Sequence record: OZ335964.1
Strand: one strand, 5' to 3'
Length of the DNA stretch: 64,000 nt
Source: a phage
In this document: positions 40,016 to 47,112 of the stretch, piece by piece
Layout of the letters: every line of letters starts with the position of its first letter
Numbering within the stretch: position 1 is the stretch's first letter
Made by a program: the position numbers and the translations under genes
Notes under the pieces: generated by a model
Seen by the model: the letters and a program-made list of their open reading frames with translations, nothing else
Databases searched by the model: none
What the model was told of the DNA's origin: nothing

Positions 40016-40414
40016 TTAAGCCAGTCGAGTGAGTTTATAAATTGTTTTAAAGCATAAAACTTTAATATCGTCTAAAACGCTCTGCAAAGAGCTATCAACA
40101 TCATTATAAATCTCACTAGCCATTTGCGTTAATTCCTGCAAATAGGCAATTTCGTTAATCTCCTTACGGACGACCAACGTTGGTTGATACCGACCAGTGA
40201 TCCCAATATTGGTTTCTGTGAAATTATCAACCAATTCTTGCATTTCAAGATAGAACTCTTCTAGAGCCTTATGTTTTGAATAAGACCCAGGTCCAGTTAC
40301 CCCAAAATGCGCAGAATGCATATAAGTAACGCTCATTAGGCATTCACCAATAAAGCGGTCTACTTTATTAGCTTTTCCTCCCTCGGAAGTCTGCCTAAAT
40401 TCACTGAATTTCAT
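40016..40414 (-). CDS. hypothetical protein, possible ferritin/Dps-like fold (start at internal Met)
   Basis: Segment YMHSAHFGVTGPGSYSKHKALEEFYLEMQELVDNF loosely resembles the Dps helix-A/B signature; weak. Confidence 0.3.
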   Translation of the reverse strand: MKFSEFRQTSEGGKANKVDRFIGECLMSVTYMHSAHFGVTGPGSYSKHKALEEFYLEMQELVDNFTETNIGITGRYQPTLVVRKEINEIAYLQELTQMASEIYNDVDSSLQSVLDDIKVLCFKTIYKLTRLA

Positions 40415-40700
40415 TATATCGATTCTCCATTTTATTAAGCACAATAAATTGATTTGCGGCATACTCTCCCATCATGAAACAATGTTTAGCATCCATACAT
40501 TTACTACGTGCGTATGTTTTCATTATGTGGTCATGAAATTTTTGACTTGTCTCCACCGATGGTTGTATTTTGTTTATATACACGATCATAGCACCGTCGA
40601 AGTAATCAGTAAAGTCACCAACAGGACACTGATCGGCACTTACGCTACCAACTGCCATAACGCATATACCCGCAACGAGTGTTTTACGAATAAATGACAT
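40401..40700 (-). CDS. rI: lysis-inhibition antiholin RI-like periplasmic protein
   Basis: 99 aa with N-terminal signal-anchor (LVAGICVMAVGSVSA); C-terminal ...QKFHDHIMKTYARSKCMDAKHCFMMGEYAANQF... parallels recalled T4 RI (...EQFYSFMRTTYKNDPCSSDFECIERGAEMAQSY...); adjacent to tk as in T4. Confidence 0.65.
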   Translation of the reverse strand: MSFIRKTLVAGICVMAVGSVSADQCPVGDFTDYFDGAMIVYINKIQPSVETSQKFHDHIMKTYARSKCMDAKHCFMMGEYAANQFIVLNKMENRYNEIQ

Positions 40701-40761: not shown

Positions 40762-41358
40762 TTAGTGGGTAGATCCATCAATAAAATGTTTACGACAAAC
40801 AGAAATATATTTATCTTCCGCACCAATTTCGATTTGAGCACCATCGCGAATAACATTACCATCTTTATCTACGCGAAGGACCATAGTTGCTTTCTTTCCA
40901 CAATGACAAATACCCTTCATTTCGACCAGTTTATCAGCAAATGCCATCAATGCCGCAGATCCTTCAAATAGATTGCCCTGAAAGTCGGTGCGAAGGCCAT
41001 AGCACAGTACAGGGATATTTGCATCATCAACAAGCGCACACAAGCCTAAAACATGCTCTTTAGTCATAAATTGGGCTTCATCTACAAATACAGCATCAGG
41101 ACGCCATCGATCCGATCTACGCTTACCTAGTGATTCACGATAAACTAAGTCGAAAAGATCATCCGATTTAGTGAACGTAATAGCCGGAGCACTTAGACCA
41201 ATTCGGGAAACAACTTCACTATCTGAATCACGATTATCAATCGCTGGTTTAAGAATTAATACTCGCATATCACGTTCGGTATAGTTATAAGCACTTTGTA
41301 ACAGGGAAGTTGATTTGCCAGCGTTCATAGATGCATAGTAGAAATATAGTTGCGCCAT
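40762..41358 (-). CDS. tk: thymidine kinase
   Basis: 198 aa; MAQLYFYYASMNAGKSTSLLQSAYNY... and ...PVLCYGLRTDFQG...ISVCRKHF near-identical in pattern to E. coli/T4 Tdk. Confidence 0.95.
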   Translation of the reverse strand: MAQLYFYYASMNAGKSTSLLQSAYNYTERDMRVLILKPAIDNRDSDSEVVSRIGLSAPAITFTKSDDLFDLVYRESLGKRRSDRWRPDAVFVDEAQFMTKEHVLGLCALVDDANIPVLCYGLRTDFQGNLFEGSAALMAFADKLVEMKGICHCGKKATMVLRVDKDGNVIRDGAQIEIGAEDKYISVCRKHFIDGSTH

Positions 41359-41651
41359 TAATTAATCTCCAAAAATCCAGCAAGACCTAAACCAACATAA
41401 ACCCAGATGCAAAGGAAAAAGAAGCAAACACCCATAGCAAAGATAAATCCGCGTAGTGTCTTTGGATAACCTACCCAATATTCCCGACCATCTTCTAACC
41501 GGATCAGTTTATTGCCTTGAGAGTCCATGTCAATCACAACATGCTTATTTCGAGATTGCAATAGATATTGTTTTACAATCTCTACACCCGCCATAATAAC
41601 AATAACGAAATTAAAAGTCCACATAACAAGGTTAATGATAGTCTCAAGCAT
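41358..41651 (-). CDS. small membrane protein (97 aa)
   Basis: Hydrophobic helices at both ends. Confidence 0.4.
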   Translation of the reverse strand: MLETIINLVMWTFNFVIVIMAGVEIVKQYLLQSRNKHVVIDMDSQGNKLIRLEDGREYWVGYPKTLRGFIFAMGVCFFFLCIWVYVGLGLAGFLEIN

Positions 41652-41886
41652 TTTCTATCACCTCCACCCAATCAGGCGTTTCCTGAAATACTCCTTCGCC
41701 TTCGTGGTGGATGCATCCTTTATTGCTACAATACATCCACCAATCCCACATTCCCCACGGTAAACGCTGCATATCGTCGTTACAGCAAGTGAAGATGATA
41801 GGCCAACCACATCTAACACATCGGCAGTTTTCTTTCATGTGAGCGGTATTAGGCTTCTTCATAGATGACTCCAATATAATCGACAT
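41644..41886 (-). CDS. Cys/Trp-rich hypothetical protein (80 aa)
   Basis: CRCVRCGW...FTCCND...YCSNKGCIHHEG. Confidence 0.35.
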   Translation of the reverse strand: MSIILESSMKKPNTAHMKENCRCVRCGWPIIFTCCNDDMQRLPWGMWDWWMYCSNKGCIHHEGEGVFQETPDWVEVIENA

Positions 41887-42089
41887 TTACATTTAGGGCA
41901 ATGCGGTTCTTTAATATAATACCCGTCTGTCTTTGGAACACTAACAGGAGCGGTTTTTATATTGTATTCAGTGAAACAACGAAAACAAGTTACGTTTTCT
42001 ACAGACTGACGTTTCACCCAATCACCGGAATAGAGATCATTTTTATTTGTCATATTCAACCACCACAATGTTAATGTCTGGAGTAGCAA
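41859..42089 (-). CDS. zinc-ribbon hypothetical protein (76 aa)
   Basis: CFRCF...CPKCKC motifs. Confidence 0.35.
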   Translation of the reverse strand: MLLQTLTLWWLNMTNKNDLYSGDWVKRQSVENVTCFRCFTEYNIKTAPVSVPKTDGYYIKEPHCPKCKCRLYWSHL

Positions 42090-42498
42090 TATTAATGATC
42101 TCTTCTACACATTCCCACTCAAGGCCACCGATACCGCAACCGATTTTAGGAATATAGAAAGGCTGTATAGCACCTTCAAAAACATCATTGATAGTCTCAA
42201 ATCCTTTCAGGATAGCACCATATTCAGCATTTGGACCCGGTCGGAATTGGGTATAGAGATTCACCCCGCACCAGTTATAACCATTAACTTGATGCGTCCA
42301 GACACTAAACCCACCCAGCTTTTCTACCTTACCGCGAGAAGTTTGCTTGTCAATTTCTAACGCTTGCGGGAACTCTTTCGCGATATCCGCAGCAATACCA
42401 GCGCCCATAGTATGAAAACAATTACAACCATGAATTAAATGACCGTTTCCTTGTTTAAACAGGGCGATGAGATCGCCCTTTACAGTATCAATAATCAT
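42043..42498 (-). CDS. macro domain protein (TARG1/OARD1-like)
   Basis: 151 aa; GDLIALFKQGNGHLIHGCNCFHTMGAGIAADIAKEFP and C-terminal FYIPKIGCGIGGLEWECVEEIINI match the pattern of TARG1-type macrodomains as recalled. Confidence 0.55.
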   Translation of the reverse strand: MIIDTVKGDLIALFKQGNGHLIHGCNCFHTMGAGIAADIAKEFPQALEIDKQTSRGKVEKLGGFSVWTHQVNGYNWCGVNLYTQFRPGPNAEYGAILKGFETINDVFEGAIQPFYIPKIGCGIGGLEWECVEEIINIATPDINIVVVEYDK

Positions 42499-42513: not shown

Positions 42514-42873
42514 TTAGTCACGGGAAGACAACCCAGCCATAAAACGGCTTAAAAGCGTGTCACGATAAGCAAAGCATAATTGCTTATCAGGGGCAGTATC
42601 ACACAGGTTGCGTTTTGTTTTAGCAAAGCTGGCAATACTCAGATCCCACGCTCGATTTTTTCGTTTTTCATCTCGACCTTGTTTGTATGCCTCGTCAAGT
42701 TCAAGTGCGATAAAATCGCTACACATGTTATCATCATCACAGAAGGTTTTAATGATCTTTTTGTTGATCTCAAATCCTTTGTATTCGACCTTTGGATAAG
42801 GGCGCTCATTACTAGCAAGCGCACCAGCCGAGAACATCATAGCAATCATAGCAATTATTGTCAACTTTTTCAT
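42514..42873 (-). CDS. secreted/periplasmic protein (119 aa)
   Basis: N-terminal signal peptide MKKLTIIAMIAMMFSAGALA. Confidence 0.45.
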   Translation of the reverse strand: MKKLTIIAMIAMMFSAGALASNERPYPKVEYKGFEINKKIIKTFCDDDNMCSDFIALELDEAYKQGRDEKRKNRAWDLSIASFAKTKRNLCDTAPDKQLCFAYRDTLLSRFMAGLSSRD

Positions 42874-42880
42874 ATATTCC

Positions 42881-43471
42881 TCAATAGCGTTTAGTTTTAA
42901 GAATGCCTTTACTCTTTAGATGGTTAGCCTTTTTTAGTACGTCATCAGCATAACCCAATCCGGCTTTATAGTTCCATCCAGCATTGTAAGAAGCTAGCGC
43001 GAGTCGGATATTACCGTTTCGAACATCCAGCCAGTATGCTAACTCATCCATCGCGTAGAATGCAGAAACCTCGCGATTCATGATAAATTTGATAGTCTGG
43101 CGATCACTCATTTTAACACCGCGCTTTGCATTTTTCGCTTTCACCGTTTTAAGGTAATTTTGAAATAATCCATAAGCATGATGATTTTTCTTTGGTGCTA
43201 AGTTTGCACCCGCGCTTGATTCTTGCCATGCTATACCCGCCAGGATGTGGCCTAAACCCTTTCCGTCATAGCGAATATTCGGATGGTCATTTTTCAACTT
43301 ACCGCTTTTCTCGAATTGTTCGCCATATTGATAGGCGAAATGTAAATTATCTAGTTGGTGTGCTGTAAAGTTGTCTATCGGCGCTTTTTTGATCGGTGCG
43401 CTAGTCGATGCGTGTGTAGCACCAACGGCTAGTGACAGACTCAATACTATCGCTTTTAGAACTTTTAACAT
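42881..43471 (-). CDS. secreted lytic transglycosylase (SLT-domain) protein
   Basis: Signal peptide LKAIVLSLSLAVGATHA; SLT motifs ILAGIAWQESS (catalytic Glu-Ser), YGLFQ, ASYNAGW. Confidence 0.55.
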   Translation of the reverse strand: MLKVLKAIVLSLSLAVGATHASTSAPIKKAPIDNFTAHQLDNLHFAYQYGEQFEKSGKLKNDHPNIRYDGKGLGHILAGIAWQESSAGANLAPKKNHHAYGLFQNYLKTVKAKNAKRGVKMSDRQTIKFIMNREVSAFYAMDELAYWLDVRNGNIRLALASYNAGWNYKAGLGYADDVLKKANHLKSKGILKTKRY

Positions 43472-43556
43472 TAATTTCTCCTGTTTGGCTTAACTTTCTG
43501 ATTCCATAATATAGCCCTATCACCAGAAAGTCAAGCATTATTTTAACCAATCTCCA

Positions 43557-43979
43557 TTATTGGTCCACTTTCAAAACAACAGCCGACATTTTACCCGCCA
43601 GTCGTTTTGGATTCTCTATAATCATTCGACAGCATAGACCGTGATATGGCTTGCCGTCTTCAATTAGGTCTACTGTCATCCCGATCCACATGTTACCGTC
43701 AGTAATTTCTAATCGATTAGGTCGGTCTTCCATTTTCAGGAAGTCGAAGATCTCCGGCAAACGAGTTTCTACCTTATTGAATAGTTCCATTGTCTTATGT
43801 TCATCGATATGACGATCGGTTAGACGGTCGATCATATGCGGACTAAAGCGAATGAAAATATACTCACCGTAACCATCATTCAAGCACTTTTCTTTGATCT
43901 GCGCATTGGTTTTGCGCATTTCGGTTTCGAAGAATCTACGCAGCTTACTACGGCGAACGTGTACATTAATTGTTTCCAT
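43557..43979 (-). CDS. regB: endoribonuclease RegB
   Basis: From internal Met: METINVHVRRSKLRRFFETE...RLEITDGNMWIGMTV...CCRMIIENPKRLAGKMSAVVLKV parallels recalled T4 RegB (...RLEITDGNLWLGFTV...CRMAIINSRRLPGKASKAVIKT). Confidence 0.75.
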   Translation of the reverse strand: METINVHVRRSKLRRFFETEMRKTNAQIKEKCLNDGYGEYIFIRFSPHMIDRLTDRHIDEHKTMELFNKVETRLPEIFDFLKMEDRPNRLEITDGNMWIGMTVDLIEDGKPYHGLCCRMIIENPKRLAGKMSAVVLKVDQ

Positions 43980-43980
43980 T

Positions 43981-44319
43981 TTATTCTCCTTTCTTAAACA
44001 AATTGCGAAGCCAGTATACAAACGGGATTTCTTTAAACTTGAACTTGTCAATAGTTAATTCTTTAGTAGCAAGATGAATACCATAAGCATCATGTGTCAC
44101 GATATGCCATTTTCTATAGCCCAAATGTGAACAACCGTCTGAATCTAGGTTAATAAGAGTTTCTCGCTCACTAGGATTATTTTTCCACAATTTTGTAACC
44201 GGGTCGCACATAATTCGACCTAGCGTACCATGAATAATCTCACAACGGTAAAGTTTTCCAGCAGTGAGATAGGCGCACCCGTCATAGTCGGTATAAACAA
44301 ACACTTCTTTAACACTCAT
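43981..44319 (-). CDS. paralog family C protein (start at MSVKEV)
   Basis: ...YTDYDGCAYLTAGKLYRC...DSDGCSHLGYRKWHIV; preceded by promoter cassette and SD. Confidence 0.45.
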   Translation of the reverse strand: MSVKEVFVYTDYDGCAYLTAGKLYRCEIIHGTLGRIMCDPVTKLWKNNPSERETLINLDSDGCSHLGYRKWHIVTHDAYGIHLATKELTIDKFKFKEIPFVYWLRNLFKKGE

Positions 44320-46722: not shown

Positions 46723-47112
46723 TTATTTTGGATCTGGGTATTTGCTGTGTGGCAATTGTAGATGAGGACCATCTTTAAACGATACCCAATCCCCACCCCA
46801 TTCAACAGGAACACCCAATTCTCGACCAGCTTGTTTAAATGCATCAGCGATCATGCGGTAATATTTCATGTTCCATGTATCCTTATCTTTCGGATACGCT
46901 ACAACGTCAACCGCGAAACCGTGAAGATGACGAGATTTCATAGTCTTAGATTTACCTTCCGCAACATATTTCTTTTGCGTTTCTAGACTACGCACACCTT
47001 CCGTAATACCAAAATCGACCGGAGTCAGTTCTAATGCACGATGAACGACTTTTACCAGGTCTGGATGTACACCAACAAGCCGATCTTTGCTTCTTTGAGA
47101 TAATTTAAACAT
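46723..47112 (-). CDS. peptidase M15-family cell-wall hydrolase (candidate endolysin)
   Basis: 129 aa; SRHLHGFAVDV (His...Asp zinc ligands) and DGPHLQL (third His) as in L-Ala-D-Glu/D-Ala-D-Ala peptidases; occupies the position of lysozyme e in T4 gene order. Confidence 0.6.
   Translation of the reverse strand: MFKLSQRSKDRLVGVHPDLVKVVHRALELTPVDFGITEGVRSLETQKKYVAEGKSKTMKSRHLHGFAVDVVAYPKDKDTWNMKYYRMIADAFKQAGRELGVPVEWGGDWVSFKDGPHLQLPHSKYPDPK

Follow-up and report, generated by a model that had tools for sequence, protein, structure and literature searches.

The vs.1-vs locus

The window analysed here is a stretch of 64,000 nucleotides of a phage (sequence record OZ335964.1), and the present study concerns two of its genes, vs.1 and vs, which adjoin each other on the minus strand within 42514..43471. 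The window belongs to a Krischvirus, an RB49-like T4-type phage, and its DNA is 95-96% identical to that of RB49-type Krischvirus phages across the 5.3 kb surrounding the two genes. A first-pass annotation, made from the sequence alone, had described the two open reading frames (ORFs) as encoding secreted proteins, one of them a lytic transglycosylase; both ORFs were confirmed, as follows.

42881..43471, minus strand: vs.1 coding sequence, for a 196-amino-acid (aa) precursor of a predicted exported, SLT-type (GH23, family 1) lytic-transglycosylase-like protein (ORF, Pfam SLT, phrog_600, RB49 annotation)
42514..42873, minus strand: vs coding sequence, 119 aa, with a signal peptide and a domain of four helices (both predicted), in which four Cys are invariant; annotation 'valyl-tRNA synthetase modifier' (phrog_1256)

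Using the PHROG profiles, the 196-aa Vs.1 was assigned to phrog_600 (E 3.5e-60 over residues 6-193; 'unknown function') and the 119-aa Vs to phrog_1256 (E 2.5e-33; 'valyl tRNA synthetase modifier'), and NCBIfam held no useful family for Vs.1 or Vs. The Vs.1 of the window is 100% identical to a protein from Escherichia phage UPWr_E1. RB49 carries the two ORFs under the names vs.1 and vs, its gene order being regB-vs.1-vs-tk.4-...-tk-rI, and T4 has the same regB-vs.1-vs-tk.4 order as the window. The first-pass annotation had asked whether proteins of the T4 vs.1 region are homologous, and they are: the identity is 47% over the full length to T4 Vs.1 and 27% to T4 Vs. Judged by sequence, T4 vs.1 and vs have their Krischvirus orthologues in 42881..43471 and 42514..42873, respectively.

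A secreted transglycosylase made from the early strand had also been called unusual, a view that finds no support, as both genes are orthologues of T4 genes, homologues of vs.1 are found in 2084 phage records and the SLT similarity has been published: a 2006 paper, referring to the 2003 T4 genome review, described a marginal match to SLT for the vs.1 of T4 and of five T4-like phages and suggested a part in lysis (PMC1524935). That vs.1 is an SLT-like gene of T4-type phages is already known (Nolan et al. 2006), and some genome records label it 'SLT domain-containing protein' or 'putative lytic murein transglycosylase'.

Export signals of Vs.1 and Vs

Signal peptides were called with a script of our own, which considers the Kyte-Doolittle hydrophobic core, the charge, the -3/-1 rule and the lipobox, together with conservation among relatives.

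43409..43471, minus strand: Vs.1 signal peptide, residues 1-21, MLKVLKAIVLSLSLAVGATHA followed by STS (script and conservation; predicted cleavage site)
42814..42873, minus strand: Vs signal peptide, residues 1-20, MKKLTIIAMIAMMFSAGALA followed by SNE (script and conservation; predicted cleavage site)

Both N-termini have a basic n-region and a 10-residue hydrophobic core (mean Kyte-Doolittle 2.6), contain neither acidic residues nor a lipobox, and place small residues at -3 and -1 (THA before Ser in Vs.1, ALA before Ser in Vs). This architecture is kept in 22/23 Vs.1 and 54/55 Vs relatives, the exceptions resembling truncated start calls, and it persists while the N-terminal sequence is otherwise unconserved. 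T4 Vs.1 and T4 Vs have a signal peptide as well, and so do distant Vs.1 homologues from Ackermannviridae, Ounavirinae and a Vibrio phage. In the AlphaFold2 (AF2) models of Vs.1 and Vs the N-termini are detached and of low confidence, with a predicted local distance difference test score (pLDDT) below 50 at residues 1-3 and 17-29 of Vs.1. As the first-pass annotation had proposed, both gene products appear to bear Sec-type (type I signal peptidase) signal peptides, and the predicted mature proteins are of 175 aa (19.7 kDa, isoelectric point 9.8) for Vs.1 and 99 aa (11.6 kDa) for Vs.

Two other modes of export were considered for Vs.1 and rejected. A signal-anchor-release (SAR) endolysin does not fit in this phage, because a short h-region is followed by a consensus cleavage site, and the status of an MltE-like lipoprotein was discarded since there is no lipobox. 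The vs.1 gene of the window sits in the early regB-tk region, not beside holin or spanin genes.

Vs.1 as a member of the SLT/GH23 family

43220..43222, minus strand: codon of the predicted catalytic Glu84 (motif I, WQE-S), invariant in 61/61 homologues and aligned by hhalign onto the motif Glu of Slt70 and MltE

The residues that the first-pass annotation had recognised as an SLT signature are indeed found in Vs.1, at 82-86 (WQESS), 101-104 (GLFQ) and 161-166 (SYNAGW), and the Pfam SLT profile (PF01464) matches residues 76-167 with 25.9 bits, above its curated cut-off of 21.3 (E 7.7e-6). A precomputed PF01464 assignment is carried by 10 of the 23 Vs.1 homologues returned. Family-1 lytic transglycosylases are defined, in the classification of Blackburn and Clarke, by the motifs E-S, G-L-(M/F)-Q, (A/S)-Y-N-x-G and Y-x-x-x-V/I/L, and by alignment all four are present in Vs.1. 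Conservation was counted in 61 unique Vs.1 homologues, taken from IMG/VR loci and reference phages and reaching down to ~25% identity. In motif I (W82-Q-E84-S85-S86), Glu84 is found in 61/61 and Ser85 in 60/61 sequences; in motif II (G101-L-F-Q104), the Gly is kept in 60/61 and the Gln in 48/61; motif III (S161-Y162-N163-A-G165) has Tyr162 and Gly165 in all 61 and Asn163 in 60; and motif IV (Y174...V178) has Tyr174 in 61/61, with Val, Leu or Ile at 178, likewise in 61/61. Trp147 is also invariant. The conservation of Glu84, Ser85, Tyr162, Asn163, Gly165 and Tyr174 over such divergence argues for retained catalysis, and we rejected the possibility of an inactive domain because the catalytic residues are invariant.

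The catalytic Glu, whose absence from an alignment to Slt or MltE would have spoken against the first-pass annotation, was present: when the Vs.1 family is aligned by hhalign with E. coli Slt70 and MltE, Glu84 falls on the Glu of AIARQESAWNP and AIIAIESGGNP, respectively, and GLFQ on GLMQ. We take the aligned Glu residues of Slt70 and MltE to be the catalytic E478 and E64. Glu84-Ser85 aligns with the E-S of EtgA (WNESKN) as well.

The AF2 model of Vs.1, built from an alignment of 23 homologues with the T4 sequence left out, has a helical lysozyme-like fold (pLDDT 84.1, predicted template modelling score 0.78). Searched with Foldseek against the PDB, its top 9 matches are all Slt or MltD (probability 0.96-1.00), the ranking being P. 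aeruginosa Slt and MltD, then E. coli Slt70, Campylobacter Cj0843 and LtgA, with lysozymes and chitinases listed below these Slt/MltD-type enzymes. A single-sequence search of the PDB with Vs.1 gave nothing relevant. Sequence and predicted structure show Vs.1 to be a true, though divergent, representative of the SLT/GH23 fold whose active site is conserved, and that it is an exported SLT-fold enzyme, orthologous to T4 Vs.1, seems to us highly probable.

Coupling of vs.1 and vs

43506..43534, minus strand: putative sigma-70-like promoter, TTGACT, 17-nt spacer, TATTAT (consensus scan, 10/12), in the 85-nt gap between regB and vs.1
43478..43482, minus strand: predicted Shine-Dalgarno sequence AGGAG of vs.1, strong, 6 nt before the ATG
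42878..42882, minus strand: predicted Shine-Dalgarno sequence of vs, GAGGA, in overlap with the vs.1 stop codon TGA (42881..42883)

A potential -35/-10 is likewise marked in the T4 record X04567, just before ORF 61.4, the vs.1 orthologue. Adjacency was measured from the Vs.1 side, in 69 IMG/VR loci encoding a Vs.1 homologue. At 38 of these loci Vs is encoded too, and each of the 38 has vs directly after vs.1 and on its strand, with the vs start between -8 and +7 nt from the vs.1 stop. The same adjacency is seen in T4, RB49, S16, ZZ1, Mineola and Acj133. Such strict adjacency, together with a ribosome-binding site of vs lying over the vs.1 stop codon, points to a translationally coupled vs.1-vs unit.

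A further promoter-like sequence lies at 42836..42864 (minus strand), in the signal-peptide codons of vs, where TTGACA and TATGAT are separated by a 17-nt spacer, with an extended TG (11/12). It is the best sigma-70 consensus match of the 5.7-kb region scanned and could drive tk.4 and the downstream genes, or be due to chance.

Distribution of vs.1 and its neighbours in other phages

Phages that encode Vs.1 but no Vs include members of the Ackermannviridae and Ounavirinae and Aeromonas T4-like phages. In the Ounavirinae phage Sf17 the vs.1 homologue is flanked by rIIB and the gene for polynucleotide kinase and lies ~1.2 kb upstream of the spanins. In Cronobacter phage S13 (L053:2842-4183) and in L054:2929-4227 the homologue stands directly before an i-spanin (phrog_739) and an o-spanin (phrog_812), followed, at least in S13, by the polynucleotide kinase gene, and it occupies in both the slot expected for an endolysin. 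This recurrent tie of vs.1 to genes of envelope disruption is the best contextual clue to its role.

Aeromonas T4-like phages that have no vs encode other small secreted proteins or lipoproteins after vs.1. An ORF of 140-146 aa lies there between vs.1 and tk.4 (L047:3871-4311, with equivalents in L049, L050 and L055); it has a lipobox in L047, L049 and L055 (e.g. MKKSIATLIAIGMYGC...) and a plain signal peptide in L050, and the ORF of L047 belongs to phrog_9490 ('unknown function'). Exported proteins seem to gather in the position after vs.1.

In S16, ZZ1, Mineola and Acj133, vs is followed, with overlapping stop and start codons, by a third ORF that carries a signal peptide (L005:1818-2219, L006:1827-2258, L007:1740-2132 and L008:1722-2141; 130-143 aa, phrog_4957, 'unknown function'), its mature N-terminus being AWEK or AWEQ. 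These four phages have a three-gene secreted cluster, the third ORF of which is absent from T4 and from the window.

Vs and its valyl-tRNA synthetase label

The first-pass annotation had overlooked that 42514..42873 is annotated as a valyl-tRNA synthetase (ValRS) modifier, for which a signal peptide is unexpected. This label is consistent over hundreds of records. Vs has four invariant cysteines (C45, C51, C91 and C100) at helix-loop junctions, its AF2 model has four helices (pLDDT 76.6), and close relatives carry a precomputed PF26829 assignment. Neither a sequence search nor a fold search found a relative of Vs in the PDB, Spackle entries included, and no structural similarity was seen to known inhibitors of lysozymes or transglycosylases, again with Spackle among them. 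An exhaustive hidden Markov model search of 1.84 billion proteins showed a tiny family: it yielded 27 clusters (50% identity), every one of single-domain proteins of 77-134 aa, and no fusion of Vs to another domain was found among them. Specific to Straboviridae, Vs is an addition to the Vs.1 family, which is much more widely distributed.

The conserved signal peptide and the invariant Cys quartet are the signature of an exported, disulfide-bonded protein, which is hard to reconcile with binding of a cytoplasmic ValRS. In the original 1986 T4 record (X04567) the vs ORF is listed only as the unnamed 'ORF 60.9', and the accessible literature, in which the papers that later named the ORF were out of reach, gave no evidence tying ORF 60.9 to vs mutations. 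The tau factor is said to be of ~10 kDa, in work of Mueller and Marchin of 1977, and T4 Vs has a predicted mature form of 11.0 kDa and a precursor of 13.1 kDa, so that the processed, exported form would fit better. T4 Vs expressed at full length in the cytoplasm with an N-terminal His tag proved insoluble (PMC8076793), which is consistent with a secretory protein, though not a proof of it.

Expression and fitness data from T4

In T4, vs and vs.1 are transcribed early and their proteins fall in the middle class (time-resolved omics, PMC9697503 supplement). In liquid LB, insertions had mean HIDEN-SEQ reads of 22.6 in vs.1 and 26.6 in vs, and of 178.6, 289.6 and 652 in the neighbours regB, tk.4 and vs.3 (10.1101/2025.11.20.689424 supplement). 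In M9-glucose, vs insertions had a log2 fold change (log2FC) of -2.19 (adjusted p 0), the headline hit of the authors, and vs.1 insertions one of -0.87 (p 0.0055, adjusted p 0.155) (10.1101/2025.11.20.689424). Insertions in regB were enriched in M9 relative to LB (log2FC +1.17, p 0.049, adjusted p 0.80; HIDEN-SEQ Extended Data Table 6, sheet S8); the opposite trend, depletion, in the adjoining vs.1 and vs speaks against simple polarity by read-through from regB and fits a separate vs.1 promoter. In CRISPRi-ART, vs.1 was scored 'Semi-Fit', as one of five such T4 genes with function unknown, and vs 'Not Fit' (PMC11879866 supplement). The fitness costs that the two screens show for vs.1 are mild, and vs is required in minimal medium. 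Clearly, the vs.1-vs unit contributes to productive infection.

Surrounding genes

43557..44051, minus strand: RegB, neighbour of vs.1
42043..42498, minus strand: tk.4, macro-domain protein, neighbour of vs
40762..41358: thymidine kinase (tk), a neighbouring gene
40401..40700, same strand as vs.1 and vs: RI antiholin (RI/Antiholin profile match), rI lying ~2 kb downstream of the pair
46723..47112, minus strand: putative endolysin, Peptidase_M15_4, 129 aa (E 2.2e-11; RB49 annotation 'putative endolysin')

The regB ORF as called mechanically (43557..44051, minus strand) has a TTG start and 164 aa. RB49 RegB has 140 aa from an internal ATG (METINVH...), and the Pfam match of the ORF starts at residue 29, so the shorter form is probably the real one. 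The tk.4 orthologue at 42043..42498 matches Pfam Macro (2.4e-6) and a DarG-like NCBIfam family (1.2e-12). The T4 macrodomain protein AdfM is an anti-DarT2 factor that strips ADP-ribose from DNA (HIDEN-SEQ preprint, 10.1101/2025.11.20.689424); we assume that AdfM is tk.4, and if so an anti-defence gene lies directly downstream of vs. Three ORFs sit between tk and tk.4, where T4 carries tk.1-tk.3: a 97-aa protein with hydrophobic membrane-like segments (41358..41651, minus strand; phrog_16027), an 80-aa Cys-rich ORF with a Phage_zn_bind domain (41644..41886, minus strand; 9.1e-34), and a second Cys-rich ORF that overlaps the latter (41859..42089, minus strand).

Proposed role and alternative explanations

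The best overall explanation, which we consider probable, is a coupled early vs.1-vs unit that would encode an exported murein transglycosylase and a periplasmic partner. Transcription of vs.1-vs would probably be early, from the sigma-70-type promoter just upstream of vs.1. The 196-aa Vs.1 precursor would be exported by Sec and its signal peptide removed after THA, to give a basic single-domain enzyme of GH23/SLT family 1, in which Glu84 is the predicted general acid that cuts the bond between N-acetylmuramic acid (MurNAc) and N-acetylglucosamine in peptidoglycan, presumably giving 1,6-anhydroMurNAc, as motifs and fold suggest. Vs would be co-translated, probably exported and disulfide-bonded, and most likely would act with or on Vs.1 in the periplasm. 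As to physiology, Vs.1 may perform a limited cutting, loosening or remodelling of the sacculus from mid-infection, aiding infection and the final breakdown of the envelope, as an accessory to the main endolysin and not as its replacement; we propose this role tentatively and regard it as somewhat doubtful. The phage appears to use a peptidase-type endolysin rather than a T4 e-type lysozyme, so that Vs.1 may be its sole enzyme cleaving glycan strands, leaving aside virion-associated lysozymes, which were not looked for.

Several points weigh against this explanation. The single-template probabilities of the hhalign alignments are very low, the Foldseek E-values of the top matches are 0.02 at best (0.02-0.08), with query TM-scores of 0.35-0.52, and a profile search of PDB sequences with Vs.1 returned EtgA alone, at E 0.39. 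GH23 includes hydrolytic goose-type lysozymes too, which bears on the lytic-transglycosylase chemistry, and we know of no enzymology for any member of the Vs.1 family. T4 e mutants fail to lyse, so Vs.1 cannot be a sufficient lysin. Classical vs genetics points to a cytoplasmic action on ValRS, which a Vs confined to the periplasm would contradict, provided that ORF 60.9 is indeed the vs gene. The M9 effect of vs.1 fails multiple-testing correction, and the effects seen for vs.1 in the screens could be partly polar on vs, as polarity or coupling may blur which gene is responsible. In the transposon-saturation data, T4 vs.1 and vs are both non-essential on LB plates (10.1101/2025.11.20.689424).

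The partner role of Vs admits of two other accounts. Vs might be a periplasmic inhibitor or immunity-like regulator of Vs.1, its stoichiometric co-translation restraining the wall-cutting enzyme until lysis, as Spackle does with gp5 lysozyme. The strict adjacency with overlapping stop and start in 38/38 loci, the signal peptides on both proteins, the small helical protein with four invariant Cys and the Straboviridae-restricted, exclusively single-domain family (27 clusters) would all suit such an inhibitor, and the heavier cost of losing vs than of losing vs.1 in M9 (log2FC -2.19 against -0.87) is what one expects if the antidote is needed more than the enzyme; yet vs.1 insertions are depleted in LB about equally to vs insertions, the enzyme is tolerated alone in the many phages that encode Vs.1 without Vs, and Vs bears no structural likeness to known lysozyme or transglycosylase inhibitors such as Spackle, so that we think an inhibitor decidedly unlikely. 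The other account keeps Vs in the cytoplasm as the tau factor that binds host ValRS, its adjacency to vs.1 being incidental and its N-terminus either unused for export or giving partial export. Classical vs mutants alter the behaviour of ValRS in vivo, and the annotation is the same in hundreds of records. The specific need for T4 vs in minimal medium would also suit a role in translation or amino-acid supply (10.1101/2025.11.20.689424). Against it stand the canonical n-h-c signal peptide with A-x-A in 54/55 family members, the invariant cysteines at the helix-loop junctions, the cytoplasmic insolubility of the tagged protein (PMC8076793), the missing link between ORF 60.9 and the vs mutations in the accessible sources, and the ~10-kDa size of tau, which is closer to processed Vs. 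On balance a cytoplasmic ValRS modifier is possible, if on the unlikely side, and keeps appreciable weight.

Other readings concern Vs.1 itself. The first-pass annotation had connected the pair with superinfection exclusion and lysis timing through the periplasmic T4 proteins RI, Imm and Sp, and Vs.1, with or without Vs, could in principle alter the wall against a secondary injection or give a periplasmic signal sensed by RI; the periplasmic location and early synthesis resemble those of Imm, Sp and RI, and rI lies on the same strand downstream. This connection found no support in the Pfam and PHROG scans, which gave no match of either protein to the Imm, Sp or RI families, and the reasoning from the early strand is weak because that strand also carries the putative endolysin, at a distance of 3.3 kb. 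Moreover, knock-down of vs.1 lowers the success of T4 in single-phage screens, which is unexpected for a pure exclusion gene, and in phages without vs the vs.1 gene associates with spanin genes and not with exclusion genes. To our knowledge there is no mechanism by which cutting of glycan strands blocks injection, and we judge a function in exclusion or lysis-inhibition signalling highly improbable. That Vs.1 is an inert peptidoglycan-binding protein, or an ordinary hydrolytic lysozyme in place of a lytic transglycosylase, would agree with its weak similarity to characterised transglycosylases and with the presence of hydrolases in GH23; the (near-)invariance of Glu84, Ser85, Tyr162, Asn163, Gly165 and Tyr174 in the 61 sequences, the full set of family-1 motifs and the ranking of Slt/MltD-type enzymes above lysozymes and chitinases in the structural list make this very unlikely.

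Beyond the coupled unit itself, a more specific proposal can be put forward, as a speculation that we hold to be unlikely rather than likely: the vs ORF may encode a Sec-exported, disulfide-bonded periplasmic four-helix protein that is the obligate partner (regulator, inhibitor or chaperone) of Vs.1, the vs.1-vs pair may form a cell-wall module for T4 fitness, especially in minimal medium, and the ValRS label may be a mis-assignment of ORF 60.9 or reflect a second, unrelated activity. Literature searches for vs.1 combined with periplasm, regB or signal peptide returned nothing relevant, and the export signature of Vs, the invariable vs-vs.1 coupling and the shared vs/vs.1 fitness profile were found stated nowhere searchable; taken together, these three are a lead and not a result. 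Both genes affect fitness in two independent genome-wide T4 screens, and deciding the roles of Vs and Vs.1 could settle a 50-year-old annotation and explain why a wall-cutting enzyme would be secreted long before lysis.

Comparison with known systems

The closest known counterpart of the window Vs.1 is T4 Vs.1 (ORF 61.4, NP_049725, PHROG 600), which lies likewise between regB and vs and agrees with it in its signal peptide, in all four SLT motifs and roughly in size (181 aa against 196 aa). It differs in that the mature N-terminus of the window protein is ~14 residues longer, that the 85-nt, promoter-bearing gap between regB and vs.1 is of 7 nt in T4, and that vs.1 and vs are separated by a 7-nt gap in the window and overlap by 8 nt in T4. 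T4 Vs (ORF 60.9, NP_049724, PHROG 1256, PF26829) shares with the window Vs the four aligned Cys, the signal peptide, a G-L motif at the C-terminus and the place between vs.1 and tk.4, whereas its sequence is very divergent.

T4 Spackle (gp61.3), a small Sec-exported, Cys-containing, helical early protein that inhibits gp5 lysozyme in the periplasm, is a conceptual analogue for Vs; no sequence or fold similarity between the two was detected, and an inhibitory function of Vs is purely hypothetical.

With the family-1 lytic transglycosylases (the catalytic domain of Slt70, MltE, EtgA of the type III secretion system, P. aeruginosa Slt, MltD) Vs.1 has in common the predicted helical lysozyme-like fold, the Glu-Ser, the motifs and a probable periplasmic location. 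Unlike them, it would be a minimal soluble single domain, without lipid anchor, superhelical U/L domains or LysM repeats, and it is encoded by a phage, with synthesis in early to mid infection and an identity of ~20%. Phage endolysins with a signal peptide or SAR sequence have a muralytic domain that is exported by Sec without a holin, as Vs.1 probably has. Vs.1 departs from them in its short, predicted cleavable signal peptide, which is not a Gly/Ala-rich SAR anchor, in the early expression and non-essential nature of its gene, and in the presence of a separate enzyme, the Peptidase_M15_4 putative endolysin in the phage studied here and lysozyme e in T4.

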